DNA from: an uncultured Anaerolineales bacterium
Lineage (GTDB): Bacteria; Chloroflexota; Anaerolineae; Anaerolineales; VGOW01
Length of the DNA: 34,669 bases
Direction of reading: 5' to 3'
NCBI GenBank assembly: GCA_964431175.1
Contig: CAYSIV010000003.1
Span: forward strand, 14,464 to 49,132
A model generated the notes under the pieces. It was not told the DNA's origin. It ran no database searches and was given only the letters and a program-made list of their open reading frames with translations. The position numbers and the translations under genes are program-made. Each line of letters starts with the position of its first letter. The stretch's first letter is position 1. Below, piece after piece: positions 2,602 through 34,669 of this stretch.

Positions 2602-5288
2602 CTCGCTCCCTGAAACGATATGAGGTCGTCGTCCTCATCCTGATTCTGGCAACGTATTTGCGGCTGGCAAATCTCGGCGCCGAGCAGTTTCATGGCGACG
2701 AAAACTTCATCAGCCTCCGAGCAATTCATGTGGCCCAGTACGGCCAAATCGAGTGGCTGGGGCCGCCGATGTCAGTCGGGCTGTGGCACTCGCCCCTCTC
2801 AAACTATCTCTACGCCATTCCATTCAAGATCGCCCCGGACACCCGCCTTGGGCGTGTGTTCACGGCGATGATGAACCTGATCGCCGTAGCCCTTACTTAT
2901 GGGCTTGGTGCGCGCTACTTTGGCCGCCGGGCCGGCCTCATCGCCGCACTGCTGTACGCCGTCCACCCGGAAGCGGTGAATGCAAGCCGGATCATCAACA
3001 ATGCCCAGATAGGCGCGCCGTTCGTCATGCTGTACCTGTTGACTGGACTGTTAGGCTATTACGATGACAAACGCCTCGCTCGTCTCGCTCACCTTCCCGC
3101 ACTCAGCCTCGCCGGGCAATGTCATCCTTATTCATTTGCCTTGGCGCCGATTTCCCTCATCCTGATCGTCAGCGCCTGGTGGCGGCGCCCTAACCAGCGG
3201 CGGTCGATTCTTATCCACACGGTCGTGAGCGGACTAATTGCCGGAGCGTTCATGCTGCCGTGGATGATCGGCACCTATCAATATCGCGGCCCGGACATTT
3301 TCCGCGTCGCCGAAGGGATTAGTTTCCGCGGAAACGGGGGGCCGCAATATACGTTTGAAGTTGTATATAACCTGGTCGGTGGGCCGGAGGGAATTTTGCG
3401 GGTTGTAAACGCAAGCCTGACGGCCATTGGAATGACCTGGCTGATGATTCAAACTGTTCGCCGCCAAGCACAGGGACTGATTGGATCGCTGTTGCTGTTG
3501 GCGCTCGTAGCAATCCCGATCGCGACGATGCGGTTGAACCTGTTCATCATCGCCGATTATCTGTGGCCGGTCCTGCCGCTCGCGTTTATCTTTCAGGGCG
3601 CAGTCATCGGAGCGTTCCTGCCGCGAAACGCCCCAGCCGATCAAAACGCGCAAACCCGGCAAGGTTTTTTGACAAACCGTTACTGGCAGTGGGGCCTCAC
3701 TGGTTTTGCCGTAGTGCTCGCCGCATTGAATACAGGCTACATACTCACCCTTGACCGCGACGTGTTCGGCCAATCGCTCGATGCGCAATATGCTGTGCTG
3801 AATCAAGCCTCCGTGCTGGCTAAACATGGCAACAGAGAAGTTCTGGCGATCACGCCAGGTTACCAGGGCATCTCGATGCGATGGGAGGTTTTGCGTGAAA
3901 TCTACGCGCTCACAGAAGGCCGGCAAATCTTCGTCGTCTCCGATGGGGGGGCAATGCCCCTGCCCGACGCGGGCGCGGTGCTTGTCGGCCCGGCGGATTA
4001 CAATGGCCGCCTCTTCTTCTCCGGGGGAACCGTCACCGATGGATTTCGCCTCGTCGATCTCCCCCCCGCTGATCAATTCAAGCCCGACCTCCTGCCGCCC
4101 GCATCCCTACACTTCTCCAACCGCGCAACCGTATTTGGCTTTCTGCGCCAGACCGCAGACTCAATGCCCACCGCAGGTCAAACGTGGATAGTCTATCTGA
4201 TCTGGCGCATTGACGAAGCCAGTGGCGATGAGCATACCCTGTTCGTTCACCTTATTGACGACGCTGGAAACAAATACGCTCAACTCGATCTGGCCGGGCT
4301 CGCCGTAGGGCAACAACGCGACAGCGAATATGTGCTGAGCCAATTCAACTTGCCGGTCGCCGATAGCTTGCCTGCCGAAGGCCCGCTCTATCTCCGCTTT
4401 GGGATGTATAACGCAACCGGCCAGGCTGAAGTGCTGGATGAATCAGGCAACAGCATCGGCGACTATGGCTTGATCCAGATACGCGGCCAGAGCCAACCGG
4501 CGGCCTCATGGCCGAACGGCCTCAGCCTCGACCGCCTCACGGTCAACAGCCCGCTTGTTCAAGGTCCGCCACTCGACGTGACAGCCACCTGGCATCTTAC
4601 ACAGTTACTCAATACCGAAATTCAGGTGCAGTGGCAGCTAGTTGATTCCGGTGGGGATGTTGTGTTTAATCAGACAACCGACCTTACCCACAACATCTCC
4701 TCAACAGCATTGCCGGCAAACACGTTTGCCACTGAATATTACAACCTCCGTATCCCCACCGATATCAAACCCGGCCCCTACAGTCTCAAAGTGCAGTTGA
4801 CCGACTCGAACAACCGGTCACTCGGCGAGCCTTACCACACTCAGATCGAGGTGACGGCTCGCGAACGACGATTCGAGCTGCCGCCCATGATGTACCCGGT
4901 CGGCGCGGCCTTCAGCGATCAAATCTCATTGCCAGGCTATGATCTGATGCAAAACGGAGGGGAATTGCAAATCACGCTTCACTGGCAGGCGCATGGGCAG
5001 ATTCGGCAGGACTACAAATATTTCGTTCACGTCTGGCAAAACGGGCAGGTGGTGGCGCAAGCCGATGCCATGCCTGGCAGTTATCAATACCCCACCTCGT
5101 GGTGGGCGCCGAACGAGGTTTATAGCGAAACGGTCAGCCTCGACCTCAGCCCATTTGGCCCAGGCACGTACACCCTCACCACCGGGTTCTACGATCCAGC
5201 CAACGGCGAACGCCTGCCAGTGAAATTATCAAATGGCAACGATGCCATTGAGGATTGGGCAATACTTCAGAACATTGAACTCAAATAG
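2598..5288 (+). CDS. GT-C fold membrane glycosyltransferase (PMT/ArnT-like) with three C-terminal beta-sandwich repeats
   Basis: LRLANLGAEQFHGDE loop motif and FGRRAGLIAALLYAVHP; three related ~120-aa C-terminal repeats; ATGA overlap with the upstream gene. Confidence 0.8.
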   Translation: MTRSLKRYEVVVLILILATYLRLANLGAEQFHGDENFISLRAIHVAQYGQIEWLGPPMSVGLWHSPLSNYLYAIPFKIAPDTRLGRVFTAMMNLIAVALTYGLGARYFGRRAGLIAALLYAVHPEAVNASRIINNAQIGAPFVMLYLLTGLLGYYDDKRLARLAHLPALSLAGQCHPYSFALAPISLILIVSAWWRRPNQRRSILIHTVVSGLIAGAFMLPWMIGTYQYRGPDIFRVAEGISFRGNGGPQYTFEVVYNLVGGPEGILRVVNASLTAIGMTWLMIQTVRRQAQGLIGSLLLLALVAIPIATMRLNLFIIADYLWPVLPLAFIFQGAVIGAFLPRNAPADQNAQTRQGFLTNRYWQWGLTGFAVVLAALNTGYILTLDRDVFGQSLDAQYAVLNQASVLAKHGNREVLAITPGYQGISMRWEVLREIYALTEGRQIFVVSDGGAMPLPDAGAVLVGPADYNGRLFFSGGTVTDGFRLVDLPPADQFKPDLLPPASLHFSNRATVFGFLRQTADSMPTAGQTWIVYLIWRIDEASGDEHTLFVHLIDDAGNKYAQLDLAGLAVGQQRDSEYVLSQFNLPVADSLPAEGPLYLRFGMYNATGQAEVLDESGNSIGDYGLIQIRGQSQPAASWPNGLSLDRLTVNSPLVQGPPLDVTATWHLTQLLNTEIQVQWQLVDSGGDVVFNQTTDLTHNISSTALPANTFATEYYNLRIPTDIKPGPYSLKVQLTDSNNRSLGEPYHTQIEVTARERRFELPPMMYPVGAAFSDQISLPGYDLMQNGGELQITLHWQAHGQIRQDYKYFVHVWQNGQVVAQADAMPGSYQYPTSWWAPNEVYSETVSLDLSPFGPGTYTLTTGFYDPANGERLPVKLSNGNDAIEDWAILQNIELK

Positions 5289-28561: not shown

Positions 28562-29749
28562 ATGCGCCTCTTGTACGTCATCCCTTACTTCTATCCGGCT
28601 TGGGCCTATGGCGGCACTTGTCGCGCCGCCTGGGAACTGGCGCGGGCCGTGGCTCGCAAAGGCCACCAAGTGGTGGCCTGCACCACCGATGCCCTCGACG
28701 CCCGCCGCCGGGCCAAGCCCGCTTTTGAAGTGGTTGAGGGCGTGGAAATTCACCGTGCCCTAAACCTGAGCAACCGCCTCGCTTGGTCGCGGCTGTTTAT
28801 GCCGTTCACCTTTGGTTGGAAACTGGAAGAGGAATTGCGCCGGGCCGATGTCGTCCACCTGCACGAATATCGCTCATTGCAAAATGCAATCGCCCGACCC
28901 GCGATTAAACGGGCGGCCAAGCCATTTATCCTCACGGCTCAGGGCAGCGTGCCACTCCTCACGGGCCGATTTGCTCTCAAACGAATTTATGACTCGTGGG
29001 CGGGCAGGCCACTGCTGGCTGGCGCCTGTCGCCTGCACGCCCTCAATATCATGGAGGCCGATCAATTTATCGAAGCGGGTGGCAAACGTGAACGACTCTT
29101 CATTGCGCCGAATGGTATTCAGGCGGGCGATTTTCAAAACCTGCCGCCCGCCGACTCGATAGCCTTTCGCGCCCGGCACAACATTTCGCCAAGTTCGCCC
29201 ATCATCCTCTTTCTGGCGCGCATCAACCAAATCAAAGGCGTGGATTTTTTAGTGTCGGCCTTTGCTCAAGTTCGCCGCCAACTGCCTCAAGCCATGCTTG
29301 TCATCGCCGGGCCAGATGACGGCTACCTGCCGGAAGTGAAGCGGCAGATCGAGTCGCTAGGTTTGGCCGACTCGGTTCGATTCACTGGATACTTGGACGG
29401 GACGGCTAAAATAGAGGCCTATCAGGCCGCCGATGTTTACGTTCTGCCTTCAATATACGAAATTCAGGGCATCACCTTGCTGGAGGCGCTGGCCTGCGGG
29501 GCAAGCGTCATCACGACCGATCGGTGCGGCCTGGCCGACTCGATTCAGCAGAACGACCTCGGCGCGGTTGTAAAATTTGGGGATGTAGCTGGTTTGAAGG
29601 ATGAGCTTGGGCGCGCCCTGAACAATCCAAAAGACGCCCACCGTGCTGAACAGCGGCGCGACTACGTTCTGGAAAACTTCAGTTGGGAGGCAATCGCAGA
29701 ACAGTGGGAGAGTATCTATCGCGAGTGCGCGATCAAGCGGGTAGGGTAA
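28562..29749 (+). CDS. Glycosyltransferase family 4
   Basis: PAWAYGG, DVVHLHE, PNGI, LARINQIKG, AGPDDG, EIQGITLLEALACG. Confidence 0.9.
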   Translation: MRLLYVIPYFYPAWAYGGTCRAAWELARAVARKGHQVVACTTDALDARRRAKPAFEVVEGVEIHRALNLSNRLAWSRLFMPFTFGWKLEEELRRADVVHLHEYRSLQNAIARPAIKRAAKPFILTAQGSVPLLTGRFALKRIYDSWAGRPLLAGACRLHALNIMEADQFIEAGGKRERLFIAPNGIQAGDFQNLPPADSIAFRARHNISPSSPIILFLARINQIKGVDFLVSAFAQVRRQLPQAMLVIAGPDDGYLPEVKRQIESLGLADSVRFTGYLDGTAKIEAYQAADVYVLPSIYEIQGITLLEALACGASVITTDRCGLADSIQQNDLGAVVKFGDVAGLKDELGRALNNPKDAHRAEQRRDYVLENFSWEAIAEQWESIYRECAIKRVG

Positions 29750-30350
29750 ACAAGCTGTCCACTGCCAGTTCCAGCCCGGCCAGGGCGGCCGACTTCAAAC
29801 GCTCGCCGTTGCCAAACTGACCGAGCAGGGCGTACTCGACGCCATCAGCCGGAAGCGTGTACACTTCTACCGACCGGGTCTTGGGATCCACTAGCCAGTA
29901 TTCGCGGACTTTGGCTTGCTCGTAAGCGCCGAATTTGATGTGCTGATCGAGGCGCAAACTGCCGGGCGAGATCACTTCCACCACCAGATCGGGCGCGCCC
30001 TCAAAAATTTGGGCATCGGAAGCAGGCTGGCGCTGAGCGGCGATGAACAGAACATCGGGCTGAACAGGCTTGGCAATGCCGGGCAAGTGAACTTCAAACG
30101 GGGCGGCGATGACGCCGCCCAAAGCGGGTTCGTCCACGAAGGTTGCTAATTGCTTGACGAGACGAGATACGGCAAACTGATGTTCGTAAGAGGGTGCGTT
30201 AGCTACGTATAAAACTCCTTCGATGATCTCGCAGCGTTTGCCGTCGTCCGGCAGGCGAAGGTAGTCCTCGTAAGTCCATTGGCCTTGAGGCGGCCACGAT
30301 TGTTCGGCGGGGAGCGAAGTCAGAGGAGGCGTTGTGGTCAACATAGGCAT
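29733..30350 (-). CDS. Uma2 family (PD-(D/E)XK) putative endonuclease
   Basis: WTYEDYLRLPDDGKRCEIIEG, HQ, VQPDV, APDLVVEVISP, KFGAYEQAKVREYWLVDP. Start at ATG 30350 after GGAG, with TATAAT at 30372-30367 on the minus strand. Confidence 0.9.
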   Translation of the reverse strand: MPMLTTTPPLTSLPAEQSWPPQGQWTYEDYLRLPDDGKRCEIIEGVLYVANAPSYEHQFAVSRLVKQLATFVDEPALGGVIAAPFEVHLPGIAKPVQPDVLFIAAQRQPASDAQIFEGAPDLVVEVISPGSLRLDQHIKFGAYEQAKVREYWLVDPKTRSVEVYTLPADGVEYALLGQFGNGERLKSAALAGLELAVDSLFTLPA

Positions 30351-30389
30351 TGCTTCTCCAGAGAAGATTATAGCATTGAGGATACAATT

Positions 30390-32342
30390 ATGTGTGGCAT
30401 TTGCGGAATAGTAACCATTGGCGACGGCCCGCGCGTGGACGCGGCCTTGCTCGACAAGATGCGCGACACCATTGCCCATCGCGGGCCAGACGACGCCGGC
30501 AGTTGGGTCTCAACTGATGGTTGTGTGGGGCTGGCCAACCGGCGGCTGGCGATCATTGACCTCAGCCCGGCCGGCCACCAGCCGATGAGCAATGAGGCTT
30601 GTGCTGAGCGAAGTCGAAGCAACGGATCAGTGTGGATTGCCTACAACGGCGAAACGTACACCTACGCCGAACACTTTGAGCCGCTCAAAGCGCGCGGCCA
30701 TGTCTTTCGTTCGCAGTCCGATACTGAAGTCATCGTCCACCTTTACGAAGAATACGGCCACGATTGCCTGCACCGATTGCGCGGCATGTTTGGCCTTGCC
30801 TTGTGGGACGAGCACAAGCGCGAGTTGTTTTTGGCCCGCGACCGGCTGGGGGTGAAGCCGCTGTATTACACCTTTGTCGGCGGCCAGTTCATCTTTGGCT
30901 CGGAGATCAAGGCCATTCTGCGCCACCCGGCGGTGAGACGCGAAATGGATCTCGCGGCCTTCTATCACTTCCTCACTTTCCTCACCCCGCCCGCACCCGA
31001 CACTCTGTTCAAAGGCATCCACAAACTGCCGCCCGGCCATTGGGCCGTGCTCAAAGCTGACACGGGTGAGTTTCGCGTCGAAGAGTATTGGGACGTGTAC
31101 GACGCCGCCTGCTACGATCCGCAACTTACCGAGGGCGAGTGGGCCGAACGTTTGCGGGCCAAGCTGGCCGAGTCGGTGAAATTGCGCATGGTGTCGGATG
31201 TGCCATTCGGCGTGTTTCTGTCGGGCGGGATGGACTCGACGGTGAACACGGCGTTGATGGCGGCCCAGATGGACAGGCCGGTGCAGACGTTTTCTATCGG
31301 CTACAAAGACGCGCCCGATTACAACGAGTTCGAGTGGGCGCGGCAGGCGGCCAAACATTTTGCCACCGACCACCACGAAGTGCAGATCGGCCTTCAGGAC
31401 TTTCTTGACTTCTTGCCCAAGCTGGTCTATCACCAGGACGAGCCCATTGCCGACCCGGTGTGCGTGCCGATCTATTTTGTTTCCAAGTTGGCGAAGGAGG
31501 CCGGCACAACCGTGATTCAGGTGGGCGAGGGGAGCGACGAGCTGTTTTGCGGCTACCGCCACTGGGTGGACATTTTGCGTTTGCACAGCGGCGCCTGGCA
31601 GGCGTACTCGGCCTTGCCCCGCCCGGTGAAGCAATTAGCCCTGGCGGGCGGCGGCGCGGCGCTGAGTGAGGTGCGTTACGAATATGTGCGGCGGGCGACG
31701 GATGGCGAGGAGTTGTTCTGGGGCGGGGCGGAGGCGTTCGGTGAGGCGCGGAAGAACGGGTTGATTACAGAGTCGGTTCGACGCGCGGTTGGCGGCCTCT
31801 CCTCGCACGACGTCATCCGCAAGTTCCGCAAACGATTCGAGGAGCGCAGTCCGCATCTCGATTATCTCAGTTGGATGGGCTATTTAGATTTGCGTCTGCG
31901 TCTGCCCGAACTGCTGTTGATGCGGGTGGACAAGATGACGATGGCGACTTCGATTGAAGCCCGGGTGCCCTACCTTGATCACGAGTTTGTAGGGCTGGCG
32001 ATGAGCATCCCCCAACGGCTCAAAGTGGGTCAGGCGGTTCAACCCAAGCAGTTATTCAAGCAGGCGGTGCGCGGCCTGATCCCGGACACGATCATTGACC
32101 GGCCCAAGCAGGGCTTCCGCGTGCCGGTGACCGACTGGATGGCCGAGGCGCTTGGCGCGTTTGGCCGGGACACTCTGCAAAAGTTCTGCGCCCGAACCGA
32201 TTACTTGCGCTGGCCGGTGGTGGAGAAGTTGATTGACCGGCGGGACGAGTTGGCGTGGTATTTGCTCAACTTTGCCCTGTGGCACGAGATGTGGATTGAG
32301 GGGGAGCCTGCATTGGACAAAGGTGTACAATTATCGCAATGA
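30390..32342 (+). CDS. asnB: Asparagine synthase (glutamine-hydrolysing)-like amidotransferase 3
   Basis: True start is MCGICG at 30390 after GAGG. HRGPD, YNGE, LSGGMDS, GEGSDELFCGY, RPKQGF. Confidence 0.92.
   Translation: MCGICGIVTIGDGPRVDAALLDKMRDTIAHRGPDDAGSWVSTDGCVGLANRRLAIIDLSPAGHQPMSNEACAERSRSNGSVWIAYNGETYTYAEHFEPLKARGHVFRSQSDTEVIVHLYEEYGHDCLHRLRGMFGLALWDEHKRELFLARDRLGVKPLYYTFVGGQFIFGSEIKAILRHPAVRREMDLAAFYHFLTFLTPPAPDTLFKGIHKLPPGHWAVLKADTGEFRVEEYWDVYDAACYDPQLTEGEWAERLRAKLAESVKLRMVSDVPFGVFLSGGMDSTVNTALMAAQMDRPVQTFSIGYKDAPDYNEFEWARQAAKHFATDHHEVQIGLQDFLDFLPKLVYHQDEPIADPVCVPIYFVSKLAKEAGTTVIQVGEGSDELFCGYRHWVDILRLHSGAWQAYSALPRPVKQLALAGGGAALSEVRYEYVRRATDGEELFWGGAEAFGEARKNGLITESVRRAVGGLSSHDVIRKFRKRFEERSPHLDYLSWMGYLDLRLRLPELLLMRVDKMTMATSIEARVPYLDHEFVGLAMSIPQRLKVGQAVQPKQLFKQAVRGLIPDTIIDRPKQGFRVPVTDWMAEALGAFGRDTLQKFCARTDYLRWPVVEKLIDRRDELAWYLLNFALWHEMWIEGEPALDKGVQLSQ
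30597..30620. repeat. 24-bp REP-like unit inserted in frame in asnB3
   Basis: GCTTGTGCTGAGCGAAGTCGAAGC encodes ACAERSRS, which is absent from the two paralogs (NEDGS/NEDRS). Confidence 0.8.
32188..32308 (+). repeat. Direct repeat copy 1 (asnB3 3' end)
   Basis: 121 bp matching 33288-33408 with 7 mismatches. Confidence 0.95.
32326..32331 (+). promoter_or_regulatory. Putative -10 box for a leaderless MNT-HEPN transcript
   Basis: TACAAT ends 7 nt before ATG 32339; no SD motif is visible. Confidence 0.4.
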
Positions 32343-32827
32343 GAGCGCAATTTGAGTCTCTGCTAGCGCACCTGCTGACGGCATGCCTTGAATATTACGG
32401 CGAACGGCTGGTTTCGTTGGCCGTTTTTGGCTCGGTAGGGCGGGGCACGCCGCGCCCTGACTCGGACATAGACTTGCTTATTGTGGCTGAGGCTTTGCCA
32501 AATGGCCGGCTGAAACGCGTTGACGAGTTCCGCGTCGTCGAGGCAAAACTGGCCCCCCGCTTGGCCGAAGCGCGGGCGGATGGTCTTGCCGCCGAGTTGT
32601 CACCTGTCTTCAAAACCCCGGCTGAAGTTCGGCAAGGCAGTCTGCTATTTCTGGATATGACTGAGGATGCACGCATTTTGCACGACCGGGATAATTTTCT
32701 GCGGGAAGCGTTGGCCCGGTTCAAAGAGCAGTTAAATCGTTTAGGCGCGCGCCGGATCTGGCAGGGCAACGCCTGGTTTTGGGATTTGAAGCCGGACTAT
32801 AAGCCTGGCGAGGTTTTTGAAATATGA
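32339..32827 (+). CDS. Minimal nucleotidyltransferase (MNT) domain protein, putative antitoxin
   Basis: FGSVGRGTPRPDSDIDL matches the GSX10DXD motif. Confidence 0.9.
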   Translation: MRAQFESLLAHLLTACLEYYGERLVSLAVFGSVGRGTPRPDSDIDLLIVAEALPNGRLKRVDEFRVVEAKLAPRLAEARADGLAAELSPVFKTPAEVRQGSLLFLDMTEDARILHDRDNFLREALARFKEQLNRLGARRIWQGNAWFWDLKPDYKPGEVFEI

Positions 32828-33282
32828 CGAACATCTCGCTGGCGCAAAGTTATCTAATCAAGGCCCTTAAGCGGTTGAAAATTCTGGCCGTTCTGCTCGG
32901 CGACGAAGCCTTCTCCGATGTTGTGCGTGAAGCGCAGGAAATTGTGGAACTGGCGCTGAAAGGGATGTTGCGCCAGGTTGGCATCGAGCCGCCCAAGTTC
33001 CACGATGTCGGCGGGGCGCTGGATGAATATCGAGAGCGTTTCCCCGAATCCGCGCGCGGGCAAATTGAGCGTCTGATGGAGATTTCACGATGGCTGAGGA
33101 AAGAGCGCGAGTTTTCATTCTACGGCGATATTGATTTCATCCCCACGGAAGAGTACGATCGCGCTGACGCCCTGCGAGCCATTGAAGACGCCAAGTTCGT
33201 CGTTTCTGTAGCCGGGTCAGTGATCCGCCCGACTGATGAGGCTCCCGACGAGAAAGCCGATGCCAGTGAGAAGGCGAAGTGA
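32824..33282 (+). CDS. HEPN domain protein, partner of MNT
   Basis: All-helical pattern AQEIVELALKGML...HDV...RKEREFSFYGD...DALRAIEDA; ATGA overlap with MNT. Confidence 0.85.
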   Translation: MTNISLAQSYLIKALKRLKILAVLLGDEAFSDVVREAQEIVELALKGMLRQVGIEPPKFHDVGGALDEYRERFPESARGQIERLMEISRWLRKEREFSFYGDIDFIPTEEYDRADALRAIEDAKFVVSVAGSVIRPTDEAPDEKADASEKAK

Positions 33283-33287
33283 CTTTG

Positions 33288-33454
33288 GCGCCCGAACCGA
33301 TTACTTGCGCTGGCCGGTGGTGGAGAAGTTGATTGACCGGCGCGACGAACTGGCCTGGTACTTGCTCAACTTTGCGCTGTGGCATGAGATGTGGATTGAG
33401 GGGGAGCCGGGAGGGTGGAACGTTGAGGGAAAAACGCCGACGATAAGTGTTTGA
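33288..33454 (+). pseudogene. Orphan asnB 3' end (direct repeat copy 2, 33288-33408) with an alternative C-terminus
   Basis: Encodes ARTDYLRWPVVEKLIDRRDELAWYLLNFALWHEMWIEGEP, identical to AsnB3, then GGWNVEGKTPTISV*. Confidence 0.88.
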
Positions 33455-33461
33455 AGGTTTG

Positions 33462-33531
33462 GCCCAACGTTGCGGTTCAGCCGCGTTGCGAAGCGCAGCG
33501 GAGCAACGTCGGCTGGAACCGCTTGTTAGGC
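33462..33531 (-). mobile_element. Integron attC recombination site (70 bp, complete)
   Basis: Minus strand GCCTAAC-AAGCG-GTTCCAGC...GCTGAAC-CGCAAC-GTTGGGC. The bottom-strand hairpin pairs fully except for the canonical extrahelical G and T. Confidence 0.92.
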
Positions 33532-33580
33532 CCGATCTGGTGGAGCACCATCTGACCCGGAATGGCTTGTCCATCTGAAG

Positions 33581-34042
33581 TTATGCCTGTATGAAATAGA
33601 TGCCAACGGATAACACTCCCATAGCGATGGGCGTTAGACTGAAGAACCAGCCGATAAGGCGGTTGCTGGCCGATACTCCGGTTATCAACACTGCCACCTT
33701 GGGGTTGTCGGGGTTGTAGTGAACTGTGACGGTTGAACCGATCGGATATTTCGAGACGTCTTCTCTCGCCGCCGCGTGCCACCAGATTTCAGGCTGAATC
33801 CCAAACCCTAGCCGCTGGGAGTGGTATTGGACATCTGCGACTGTGTAGGTGTAGCCCACTTTCAGGCCGTAAGAGATGCCTTCAGCCGCGTAGCGTTGAA
33901 TACCGGCGGACTGGATTGTGCCTGGGGTGGTGGGCCAGTGTGTACTCAGTCCTCCCCATCTCAGTGCCTGGGTTTGGCGATAGAGCATACCTAGTCCAAT
34001 GCCGAGCAAGATCAATCCGCCGATCAGAAAGATTTCGTTCAT
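33581..34042 (-). CDS. DUF3592-like membrane protein; integron gene cassette
   Basis: N- and C-terminal TMs, WPTTPGTI, YTYTV...Y, YPIGSTVTVHYNPDNP. Bounded by G|TTAGGC upstream and the complementary GCCTAAC downstream. Confidence 0.85.
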   Translation of the reverse strand: MNEIFLIGGLILLGIGLGMLYRQTQALRWGGLSTHWPTTPGTIQSAGIQRYAAEGISYGLKVGYTYTVADVQYHSQRLGFGIQPEIWWHAAAREDVSKYPIGSTVTVHYNPDNPKVAVLITGVSASNRLIGWFFSLTPIAMGVLSVGIYFIQA

Positions 34043-34098
34043 CGCGCCGTTCAGACGTATCCTGTCGTTTAGAAACTGTTAGCCGCTTGACCGCGAGG

Positions 34099-34185
34099 GC
34101 CTAACGGCCAGGTTTAGGCGCGGGGCGGTAAAGTAGCGACTCGCTCAAACCAGGCGCGCCCAGCCCCGTCGCCTGCAACCCGTGT
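34099..34185 (-). mobile_element. Integron attC site interrupted at its R'' end
   Basis: On the + strand GCCTAAC-GGCCAG-GTTTAGGCGCGGGGC pairs with GCCCCGTCGCCTGCAACC with two bulged bases. The expected GTTRRRY is cut after GT and replaced by GTGCG. Confidence 0.82.
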
Positions 34186-34669
34186 GTGCGACCCGTTCGC
34201 TCGAAACTATACGCAAGTATAGGAGGATGAGCGGCAAAGAGCAAGATGGTCTTTGACAACTCGCGAAGCGTGTCCACGTTGGTGAAACCCCAACCCCTGA
34301 GGTGGTCAGGAGACCGCATCTCCCTACGGCAAGCGACTGGTTATCAACCCTTCGGCTTCGCTCAGGGCTGGAGTGCAAGGGAGAGAAGGCGATAAGCGTC
34401 GAGCCGAACGACGCGACGTGCCAAGCAAGTGACTATGGGTAACGTAAGTGAAGGTGTATTGAGGCGTCGTCATGCAGAACCAGCCCCCGATTGGAGCTGT
34501 CGGGGGCTGGCCCAAACGGGAATTGGTATCAGGTTACGTAGCCACTGCGTACGTGACACCACTCGTCAGATACCCGGCGTAAAGTATCACCCTAACACCG
34601 CATCAAATGGACACTCGGAACGGGGCAACCTTCAATGGCTCTCGCAAGAGTAGGCAACCAGCCACAAGC
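34186..34669 (+). mobile_element. Group II intron, 5' part (domain I onward); runs off the window, no RT ORF visible
   Basis: Begins with GTGCG (GUGYG consensus) exactly where the attC breaks. It is non-coding and hairpin-rich: TATAC-GCAA-GTATA, GTTGG-TGAAACC-CCAAC, CCAGCCCCCGA/TCGGGGGCTGG, GTTACGTA/TACGTGAC, CTC-GCAA-GAG, plus a GGAAC..G.AACC junction-like motif. Confidence 0.75.
34348..34367. repeat. REP-like unit inside the intron
   Basis: CCCTTCGGCTTCGCTCAGGG is the reverse complement of CCCTGAGCGAAGCCGAAGGG, the same family as 30597-30620. Confidence 0.7.

Follow-up and report, generated by a model that had tools for sequence, protein, structure and literature searches.

Predicted Toxin-Antitoxin Gene Pair Between Duplicated Ends of an asnB-Like Gene in an Anaerolineales Genome, and a Possible Recombinase-Free Route of Its Insertion

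The DNA analyzed in this study, a 34,669-nucleotide (nt) stretch that we refer to as the window, derives from an uncultured Anaerolineales bacterium of the Chloroflexota and corresponds to G000:C3:14464-49132 (contig CAYSIV010000003.1 of assembly GCA_964431175.1), at a contig end. It harbors an asnB-like gene for a glutamine-dependent amidotransferase (30390..32342; PF00733, E 5.4e-87; PF13537, E 4.1e-41), whose stop codon (32340-32342) overlaps the start (32339) of a gene for a minimal nucleotidyltransferase, MNT (32339..32827; 162 amino acids; PF01909, E 2.2e-9). The MNT gene overlaps by ATGA with a co-oriented gene for a HEPN-domain protein (32824..33282; 152 amino acids; PF05168, E 3.6e-18), and both Pfam matches are above the respective cutoffs. 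The pair is enclosed by a direct repeat of 121 nt (32188..32308 and 33288..33408), the two copies of which are 94% identical, start 1,100 nt apart, and, like the three genes, are read on the plus strand. Copy A is the 3' end of the working asnB gene (ARTDYLRW...WIEGE, in the 650-codon asnB frame). Copy B, detected by repeat search and alignment, is a displaced asnB 3' end that is fully open in the asnB frame and gives a tblastn-type match of 93% to residues 228-271 of the asnB query. It is separated from the HEPN stop codon by the 5 nt of the right junction (33283..33287, plus strand) and is followed in frame by tail B (33409..33454, plus strand; 15 codons, consisting of the 14 residues GGWNVEGKTPTISV and a stop).

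The asnB-end repeat is the sole one of its size among 12 direct-repeat families in 30000-34669, and its end coincides with the end of asnB conservation. In the pairwise alignment, the first 55 nt are identical, and the seven mismatches are found at repeat positions 56, 62, 63, 68, 74, 89, and 98. All seven differing codons are synonymous in the asnB frame (CGG/CGC, GAG/GAA, TTG/CTG, GCG/GCC, TAT/TAC, GCC/GCG, and CAC/CAT), and the base just 3' of the repeat (T at 32309, G at 33409), which is the third position of a Pro codon, is likewise silent. Random single-base changes in this stretch are synonymous in only 17 to 27% of cases, and the probability of seven silent changes out of seven is 4e-6 to 1e-4. 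The confinement of all seven mismatches to the last 66 of the 121 positions (p = 0.014) is as expected at the boundary of a crossover or conversion. These results confirm, as written, an original prediction made on this DNA from the letters alone, namely, that a 121-bp duplication of the asnB end lies 1,100 bp apart with mismatches that are all silent; the two tail translations given there are also read identically here.

The seven sites were polarized against five orthologous asnB ends, consisting of the working copy and the remnant on L024, a related metagenome contig from a separate assembly, and those of the related genomes G006, G003, and G001. Four derived changes were assigned to copy B and two to copy A, with one site ambiguous, and all of them are silent. 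The probability that a freely decaying copy B would gain four silent changes only is ~0.001 to 0.005, and copy B has therefore resided in a functional gene for most of that time. Because both copies bear the signature of coding asnB sequence, the duplication is not a fresh target-site duplication, and the earlier claim that both copies evolved as coding asnB alleles and do not represent a simple target-site duplication is supported by the silent derived changes. An alternative explanation is that an identical duplication was made at insertion, by staggered nicks and fill-in or by an illegitimate event, and was later overwritten by allelic recombination or conversion. The identity of the first 55 nt is consistent with this explanation. 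Free decay, however, predicts roughly 38% silent changes (an estimate), so that seven of seven silent differences with four derived in copy B are unlikely, and we know of no bacterial mechanism that makes duplications of 100 to 300 nt, which we count against a duplication at insertion. We consider this alternative improbable.

With regard to which copy is the resident one, polarization of the seven sites gave a mixed outcome. The sole hint is that the nucleotide match to the G006 orthologue extends 6 nt beyond the repeat into tail B, to 33414. Based on these sequence comparisons, copy B together with tail B may represent the asnB end that was resident before the insertion, and the last 66 nt of copy A together with the MNT-HEPN cassette would represent the import. 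In G001 and G003, asnB is followed by a convergent GT2 gene, an arrangement that corresponds to the empty site.

The left junction and the leader of the cassette (32309..32338, plus strand), defined by comparison with L024, make up the end of tail A in translation. The final six codons of this tail, plus its stop, correspond to a 20-nt stretch that ends at the MNT ATG and is shared by L024. Because this stretch is noncoding DNA in L024, situated 3' of the asnB stop, tail A is read-through into the cassette leader. The proposal that ALDKGVQLSQ is a foreign asnB tail is thus not supported, as the leader of the cassette itself accounts for the last six codons of this sequence. Within the leader, a -10-like hexamer, TACAAT (32326-32331), precedes the MNT ATG by 7 nt, and other members of the family have TATAAT-like hexamers at the same place, 7 to 12 nt before the start. 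A consensus scan identified no full -35/-10 promoter (0 sites); two terminator-like sites were found, fewer than in shuffled sequences. In all eight orthologues with a complete end that were compared (G006, G003, G001, G008, G033, G018, G037, and G017; L011 from G032 was excluded owing to an unread base), the asnB protein stops 0 to 15 residues after the WHE.W.E motif, and the tails are unrelated. As the tails of the orthologues are not conserved, a functional swap of the enzyme's tail, which had also been put forward in the original prediction, is unlikely; tail swapping is probably irrelevant and the consequence for asnB is probably nil.

The MNT protein harbors the catalytic motif G-S-x(n)-D-x-D, present as GSVGRGTPRPDSDID (GSVGRG...DSDID) within the PF01909 match (residues 12-72), and a sequence search gave a weak match to the PDB entry 1wot, a "putative minimal nucleotidyltransferase." For the HEPN protein, a PDB sequence search revealed no solved relative at E <= 0.01, and its relatives align only with residues 1 to about 134-140, the last ~16 residues being unshared. 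Experimentally studied HEPN/MNT pairs rely on an R-x4-H RNase motif. The HEPN protein of the window has a single His (KFHDV), the nearest upstream Arg is 9 residues away, and in place of an R-x4-6-H motif a conserved REF.FYGD motif is found; the protein therefore lacks one of the features that define type VII systems with an RNase toxin. As judged from sequence, the pair nevertheless has the anatomy of the MNT-HEPN modules, which are predicted toxin-antitoxin (TA) systems. Relatives of the MNT protein were confirmed in metagenome contigs (241) and in genome contigs (127), and the pairing with HEPN is kept in 74 of 80 metagenome loci, in which both genes were found. In the portion of their report covered here, Makarova, Wolf, and Koonin (2009; PMC2701414) predict MNT-HEPN modules to be mobile TA systems.

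The asnB gene itself has orthologues in nine relatives. In contrast, a DNA search for the cassette was positive in 0 of 6 same-genus genomes and in 1 of 34 other genomes of the order, and a protein search of 40 relatives (E <= 1e-20) detected a close homologue in G018 only (58% identity), with those in G004 and G010 being distant (36 to 37%). As none of the six same-genus genomes holds a close homologue, the cassette is an accessory insertion. Between the glycosyltransferase (GT) gene and the HEPN gene (GT-Uma2-asnB-MNT-HEPN), L024 and the window are colinear, and the cassette occupies the same asnB end in both. Amino acid identities between the two are 65% for GT, 76% for the Uma2-family endonuclease, 86% for asnB, 90% for MNT, and 94% for HEPN, and the corresponding values of synonymous divergence (dS) are 2.06, 1.43, 0.95, 0.40, and 0.62. 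The dS of the cassette is lower than that of its flanks, and the exchange of the pair between lineages therefore postdates the divergence of their asnB genes. A duplication made at insertion would require such a transfer in any case. On L024, an asnB remnant of 64 nt (89%) is present 3' of HEPN, with junctions unlike those of the window, and a further partial copy of the native asnB tail is fused to the HEPN end. The structure of L024 looks like the product of repeated events at one site.

The host assembly G000 is a short-read metagenome-assembled genome of 6.2 Mb in 517 contigs, with a contamination of 4.24%, and is larger than its six genus relatives. This raises the possibility of an assembly artefact or mispairing, in which an empty asnB and a separate circle or array joining HEPN to copy A were assembled together, or two haplotypes were stitched. 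We therefore aligned Logan k=31 contigs of four runs on 31800-33800, with runs X1 and X2 originating from one study that is possibly the source of the assembly. Difference-free contigs of X1 and X2 lead from the asnB body into the shared block, from copy A through MNT to HEPN, and from copy B into the downstream DNA, and a 382-nt contig of X2 (32936-33317), also difference-free, crosses the right junction from HEPN to copy B. In X2, the 55-nt shared unitig has a depth of 9.1, compared to 4.8, 4.7, 4.0, and 3.8 in the four flanks, and this doubled depth indicates two copies per genome at equal stoichiometry. The mapping of reads across both junctions that had been suggested to exclude a collapse of strains has thus, by way of k=31 contigs, succeeded for each junction and for the two-fold depth of the 55-mer; the contigs break at the 55-nt block and leave the junctions unpaired, which is in line with an artefact. 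Neither an empty-site joint nor a circle joint was present among the k=31 contigs, which could not show rare forms. In run X4, from a different study with thin cover, three MNT/HEPN pieces were difference-free, and nothing mapped on asnB. An artefact is, however, difficult to reconcile with the four junction flanks, each of which is found in independent difference-free contigs, or with the two-copy depth of the block. Moreover, stitching of haplotypes cannot create the junction between HEPN and the asnB tail seen in the contigs, L024 displays the same order of parts in another assembly, and the same kind of bracket occurs in G018, a genome in a single contig. We therefore consider an artefact very unlikely, and an empty site with an equally abundant 1.1-kb circle as the true structure would be far-fetched.

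Brackets of this kind recur in the MNT-HEPN family. We defined a bracket as a direct repeat (>=40 nt, >=80% identity) whose copies flank the pair on both sides at a distance of at most 400 nt. Of the 161 loci retrieved by searching with MNT, 108 contained both genes and >=300 nt on each side; 10 of these 108 were bracketed, or 8 of 106 when only distinct loci are considered (L063/L066 and L071/L118 are each the same sequence found twice), compared to 29 of 3,088 virtual segments of the same loci. The odds ratios are 10.8 for all and 8.6 for distinct loci, with control segments that overlap and are thus nonindependent. A looser screen, which had no control, detected brackets at 13 of 81 loci. 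The repeats differ from locus to locus, and each is the end or a part of a neighboring gene. They are 3' ends at L026 (Wzz-like gene), L081 (unnamed gene), and L060 (rluA) and 5' ends at L071 (NTPase gene) and L103 (kinase gene), and at L063 the repeat is part of a DUF559 gene. At L060 (3639-7326), two rluA-like 3' ends of ~300 nt, 3.4 kb apart, enclose MNT-HEPN and further small pairs of open reading frames (ORFs), so that several cassettes lie within one bracket. The search of other genomes that had been suggested, for MNT-HEPN next to asnB or other duplicated gene ends, is thus positive, with examples on L024, in G018, and at the family loci named above.

The arrangement is also observed for other toxin genes of the host genome. 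In G000, 10 of 41 toxin genes from five Pfam families are bracketed, compared to 17 of 600 random segments (odds ratio, 11; p = 1.4e-6), and for the three families that were chosen before any bracket was known (PIN, HepT, and ParE), the count is 4 of 19 (p = 0.003). For at least 7 of the 10 bracketed genes, one copy of the repeat lies inside a neighboring ORF of >=200 amino acids. In 12 bracketed G000 inserts chosen by eye, a biased sample in which 20 ORFs were scanned, six inserts harbor TA-type domains (DUF433-DUF5615 twice, HigB-HTH, UPF0175-DUF3368, AbiEii, and an NYN protein), and the remaining ones encode CcbP, DUF2568, DUF3800, an F420-dependent reductase with a PD-(D/E)XK nuclease, and a glyoxalase with MarR. 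At two sites, C128:13705-15722 and C236:5868-8117 (L187 and L185), the 5' end of a gene is present in three tandem copies with a small cassette between each pair of copies. The cassettes of C128 are an HEPN-bearing one followed by UPF0175-DUF3368, and those of C236 are HigB-HTH followed by a CcbP-like gene; in both arrays, displaced gene starts are stacked. Two of eight toxin loci are bracketed in G018, a genome assembled in a single contig of 6,366,660 nt. Its orthologous MNT-HEPN pair lies upstream of GT-asnB, between the GT start and a 51-nt copy of this start (78%), and the two copies differ mostly silently or conservatively.

As to recombinases, MNT and HEPN are the only ORFs in the 1,100-nt insert, which contains no recombinase or transposase gene, and no recombinase was found in a scan of nine upstream ORFs. 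Six matches to PF00589 were obtained in G000 (five over the family cutoff and one weaker), none of them on contig C3. The earlier statement that no integrase or transposase is encoded therefore holds for the insert, the nine upstream ORFs, and the PF00589 search of the contig. None of the 10 inverted repeats listed has arms that coincide with the termini of the insert. As for a transposon or insertion sequence, we found no transposase and no terminal inverted repeats, and the duplication has a length of 121 nt with 94% identity. Chromosomal integrons harbor TA cassettes flanked by attC sites, and Acinetobacter plasmids carry pdif modules. Like the insert in the window, these are small TA modules without a recombinase of their own that lie between repeats and in arrays; their repeats, in contrast, are sites for IntI or XerCD, whereas those in the window are the coding end of the adjoining gene and align codon for codon with its orthologues (no attC model was run).

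Prophages that bear an integrase and carry substitute gene ends are textbook examples of a duplicated gene end. In the sections covered here of the report with accession PMC6379469, prophage e14 in icd and Rac at the 5' end of ttcA, both of Escherichia coli, supply such a substitute end. In these cases, as in the window, the insert lies in a gene end, the substitute end keeps the gene whole, and the original end is displaced (163 bp in icd); the prophages, in contrast, measure tens of kb and have their own integrase, whereas the insert in the window measures 1.1 kb and harbors MNT-HEPN only, with no recombinase found. It can thus be asked whether the repeats are attL and attR sites of a site-specific recombinase that is located elsewhere or has been lost, with the TA pair surviving from the decay of a larger island. 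The identical block, the element-borne substitute end with silent changes, and the displaced pseudo-end do reproduce the anatomy of e14 in icd (PMC6379469, same sections), including an inner copy that completes the gene, and the five tyrosine-recombinase matches over the cutoff and the weaker one on other contigs of G000 could be sources of such an enzyme. However, the insert consists of the pair only in the window, in L024, and at >=7 other independent bracketed loci with a spacing of 0.8 to 1.3 kb, no element-encoded recombinase or fragments of one were found, and within the same TA family the targets and the repeat lengths vary by locus. In addition, no shared junction motif was noticed in the upstream regions, for which no formal motif search was made. 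Together, these points render an origin as att sites unlikely.

Based on these results, we consider it somewhat more probable than improbable that the MNT-HEPN pair reached the end of asnB by a recombinase-free, homology-guided insertion-duplication and is stabilized there by addiction. The incoming DNA would have been the cassette joined to the end of the asnB gene of another lineage. A crossover within the first 55 nt would join the resident asnB to the incoming end (the last 66 nt of copy A), the new asnB end would finish by read-through into the cassette leader, and the resident end, copy B with tail B, would be pushed 1,100 nt downstream; the identical 55-nt block would be the tract of the crossover or of a conversion. 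Two routes can be envisaged. One, already put forward in the original prediction, is a Campbell-type single crossover of a circle containing a gene end and the cassette, and a donor circle of exactly such content could be released by recombination between the copies of an existing bracket. The other is a two-arm exchange in which the donor's own remnant would serve as the right arm. The insertion-duplication would be reversible by recombination between the repeats, and its loss would be penalized if the pair is addictive. Retention of cassettes would then be favored at sites flanked by duplicated gene ends, where displaced ends could accumulate. Addiction that penalizes loss would account for TA pairs in particular, and not just any gene, being overrepresented in such brackets. 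Within this mechanism, we infer the recombination route, the donor, the stabilization by addiction, and any excision.

A number of observations weigh against this insertion-duplication mechanism. The exclusively silent differences are not general, as synonymous and nonsynonymous differences in other brackets number 8:7 (L063), 6:2 (L060), 3:3 (L024), and 2:2 (L026), mixed counts that also favor a duplication made at insertion. In 34 further short-range repeat pairs of G000, the combined numbers are 127:166, obtained with ORF-length frames that are error-prone, and the choice of the best frame biases these counts in the opposite direction. The second MNT-HEPN pair of G018 (L205), between a GT2 gene and uvrA, is enclosed by two copies of a terminator-like hairpin (3218-3251 and 4075-4108; 34 nt, 97%) that contain no coding sequence; this terminator-only bracket resembles a target duplication more closely than it does a gene end brought in with the cassette. 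The wide variation in bracket length (34 to about 300 nt) and the involvement of any neighboring sequence, this hairpin included, again agree with a duplication at insertion. None of seven isolate loci of the MNT-HEPN family is bracketed. At the eight loci on contigs of >1 Mb (including L023 from G018), L160 and L169 have repeats of only 21 to 32 nt, and the other six showed no repeats in that same screen. Within asnB, no gradient of similarity toward the cassette was detected, the values being 71 to 88% per 100 nt throughout. The identity of the first 55 nt demands an extra assumption, either alleles that were identical there or conversion, and the first insertion at a new gene would need circularization or an illegitimate joint, of which we found no trace. 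The genome-wide recombinase search covered the tyrosine family only, the pairing of entrance and exit of the 55-nt block rests on the original short-read assembly, and only 1.2 kb of the window lies beyond copy B.

The asnB-like gene is the last member of a co-directional polysaccharide gene cluster (17.4 to 32.3 kb of the window), in which Pfam scans identified genes for an epimerase, a UDP-glucose dehydrogenase, three PMT_2-type and three GT2/GT4 glycosyltransferases, and the amidotransferase. Its start is most likely the ATG at 30390 (MCGICG...), the ORF list giving an alternative upstream start, a TTG at 30279. A gene for an Uma2-family endonuclease (29733-30479, minus strand) lies between the GT gene and asnB, as it does in L024 and, judged by partial matches, in G003 and G001; in G018 and G006, asnB directly follows GT without Uma2. 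The Uma2 gene is a second small insertion in the GT-asnB gene pair. Within asnB, a 24-nt in-frame insertion (30597-30620) replaces one residue by eight (ACAERSRS) and has no counterpart in the L024 orthologue. The 16-nt core of this insertion is found at >=12 other sites in G000, one of them at ~34350-34365 in inverse orientation, and also upstream of GT in L024, so that the insertion looks like a short dispersed repeat that landed in coding sequence. A strong hairpin of ~60 nt (33472-33531) begins 18 nt 3' of the stop of the displaced tail, with -48 kcal/mol for the 90-nt stretch 33456-33545. Its contig depth is ~77 to 103 in runs X1 to X3, compared to 2 to 5 in the flanks, and many contigs continue from it into unlike sequence; two copies are assembled in G000 (C3 and C221). 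The high depth and the diverging contigs identify the hairpin as a dispersed community repeat. Neither the hairpin nor the whole region 30000-34669 gave any Rfam match at E <= 0.1.

Several features of the locus can be compared with known systems. In the loci of Rhs, contact-dependent inhibition (CDI), and similar polymorphic toxins, C-terminal displacement occurs, and arrays of "orphan" toxin-immunity genes are found. Here too, an incoming conserved stretch brings a new end and a protective partner by homologous recombination and displaces the old end, and serial events give arrays resembling the three-copy arrays of C128 and C236. In Rhs/CDI, however, the swapped end is a functional toxin domain, whereas in the window the asnB tail is not conserved, with a self-contained TA pair as the cargo. 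Campbell-type insertion-duplication is a tool of laboratory mutagenesis and is also known from plasmids. Like the proposed event, it requires one segment of homology and a RecA-type crossover, leaves two hybrid flanking copies, and is reversible; our searches of the full-text literature retrieved no description of it as a natural route of TA cassettes. To our knowledge, there is no generally accepted mechanism for the movement of chromosomal TA modules. Makarova et al. (2009; PMC2701414), in the portion of the text covered here, report a patchy distribution of MNT-HEPN modules and their insertion in syntenic loci (Deinococcus; Thermus HB8 versus HB27), which resembles the window in the two-gene composition, the patchiness, and the insertion between syntenic genes. 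The paper emphasizes the "exceptional mobility" of TA modules and names no insertion mechanism, and the term "direct repeat" has 0 occurrences in its text. Full-text searches, which were mostly at the level of abstracts, likewise retrieved no account of TA cassettes that are carried between duplicated ends of neighboring genes without a recombinase.

A broader possibility is that TA cassettes in general move without a recombinase, welded to the end of a neighboring gene, with addiction protecting the unstable duplication and displaced ends forming a footprint across phyla; we regard this generalization as tentative and rather doubtful. The bracket with its silent divergence does provide a testable model, the RecA-type integration of a gene end together with a cassette that is retained by addiction. 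If true, this model would explain the survival of unstable insertion-duplications around TA pairs and would provide a footprint in the sequence by which TA transfers could be found and dated. For annotators, it would mean that short in-frame fragments of gene ends beside TA pairs are displaced ends and not assembly noise.

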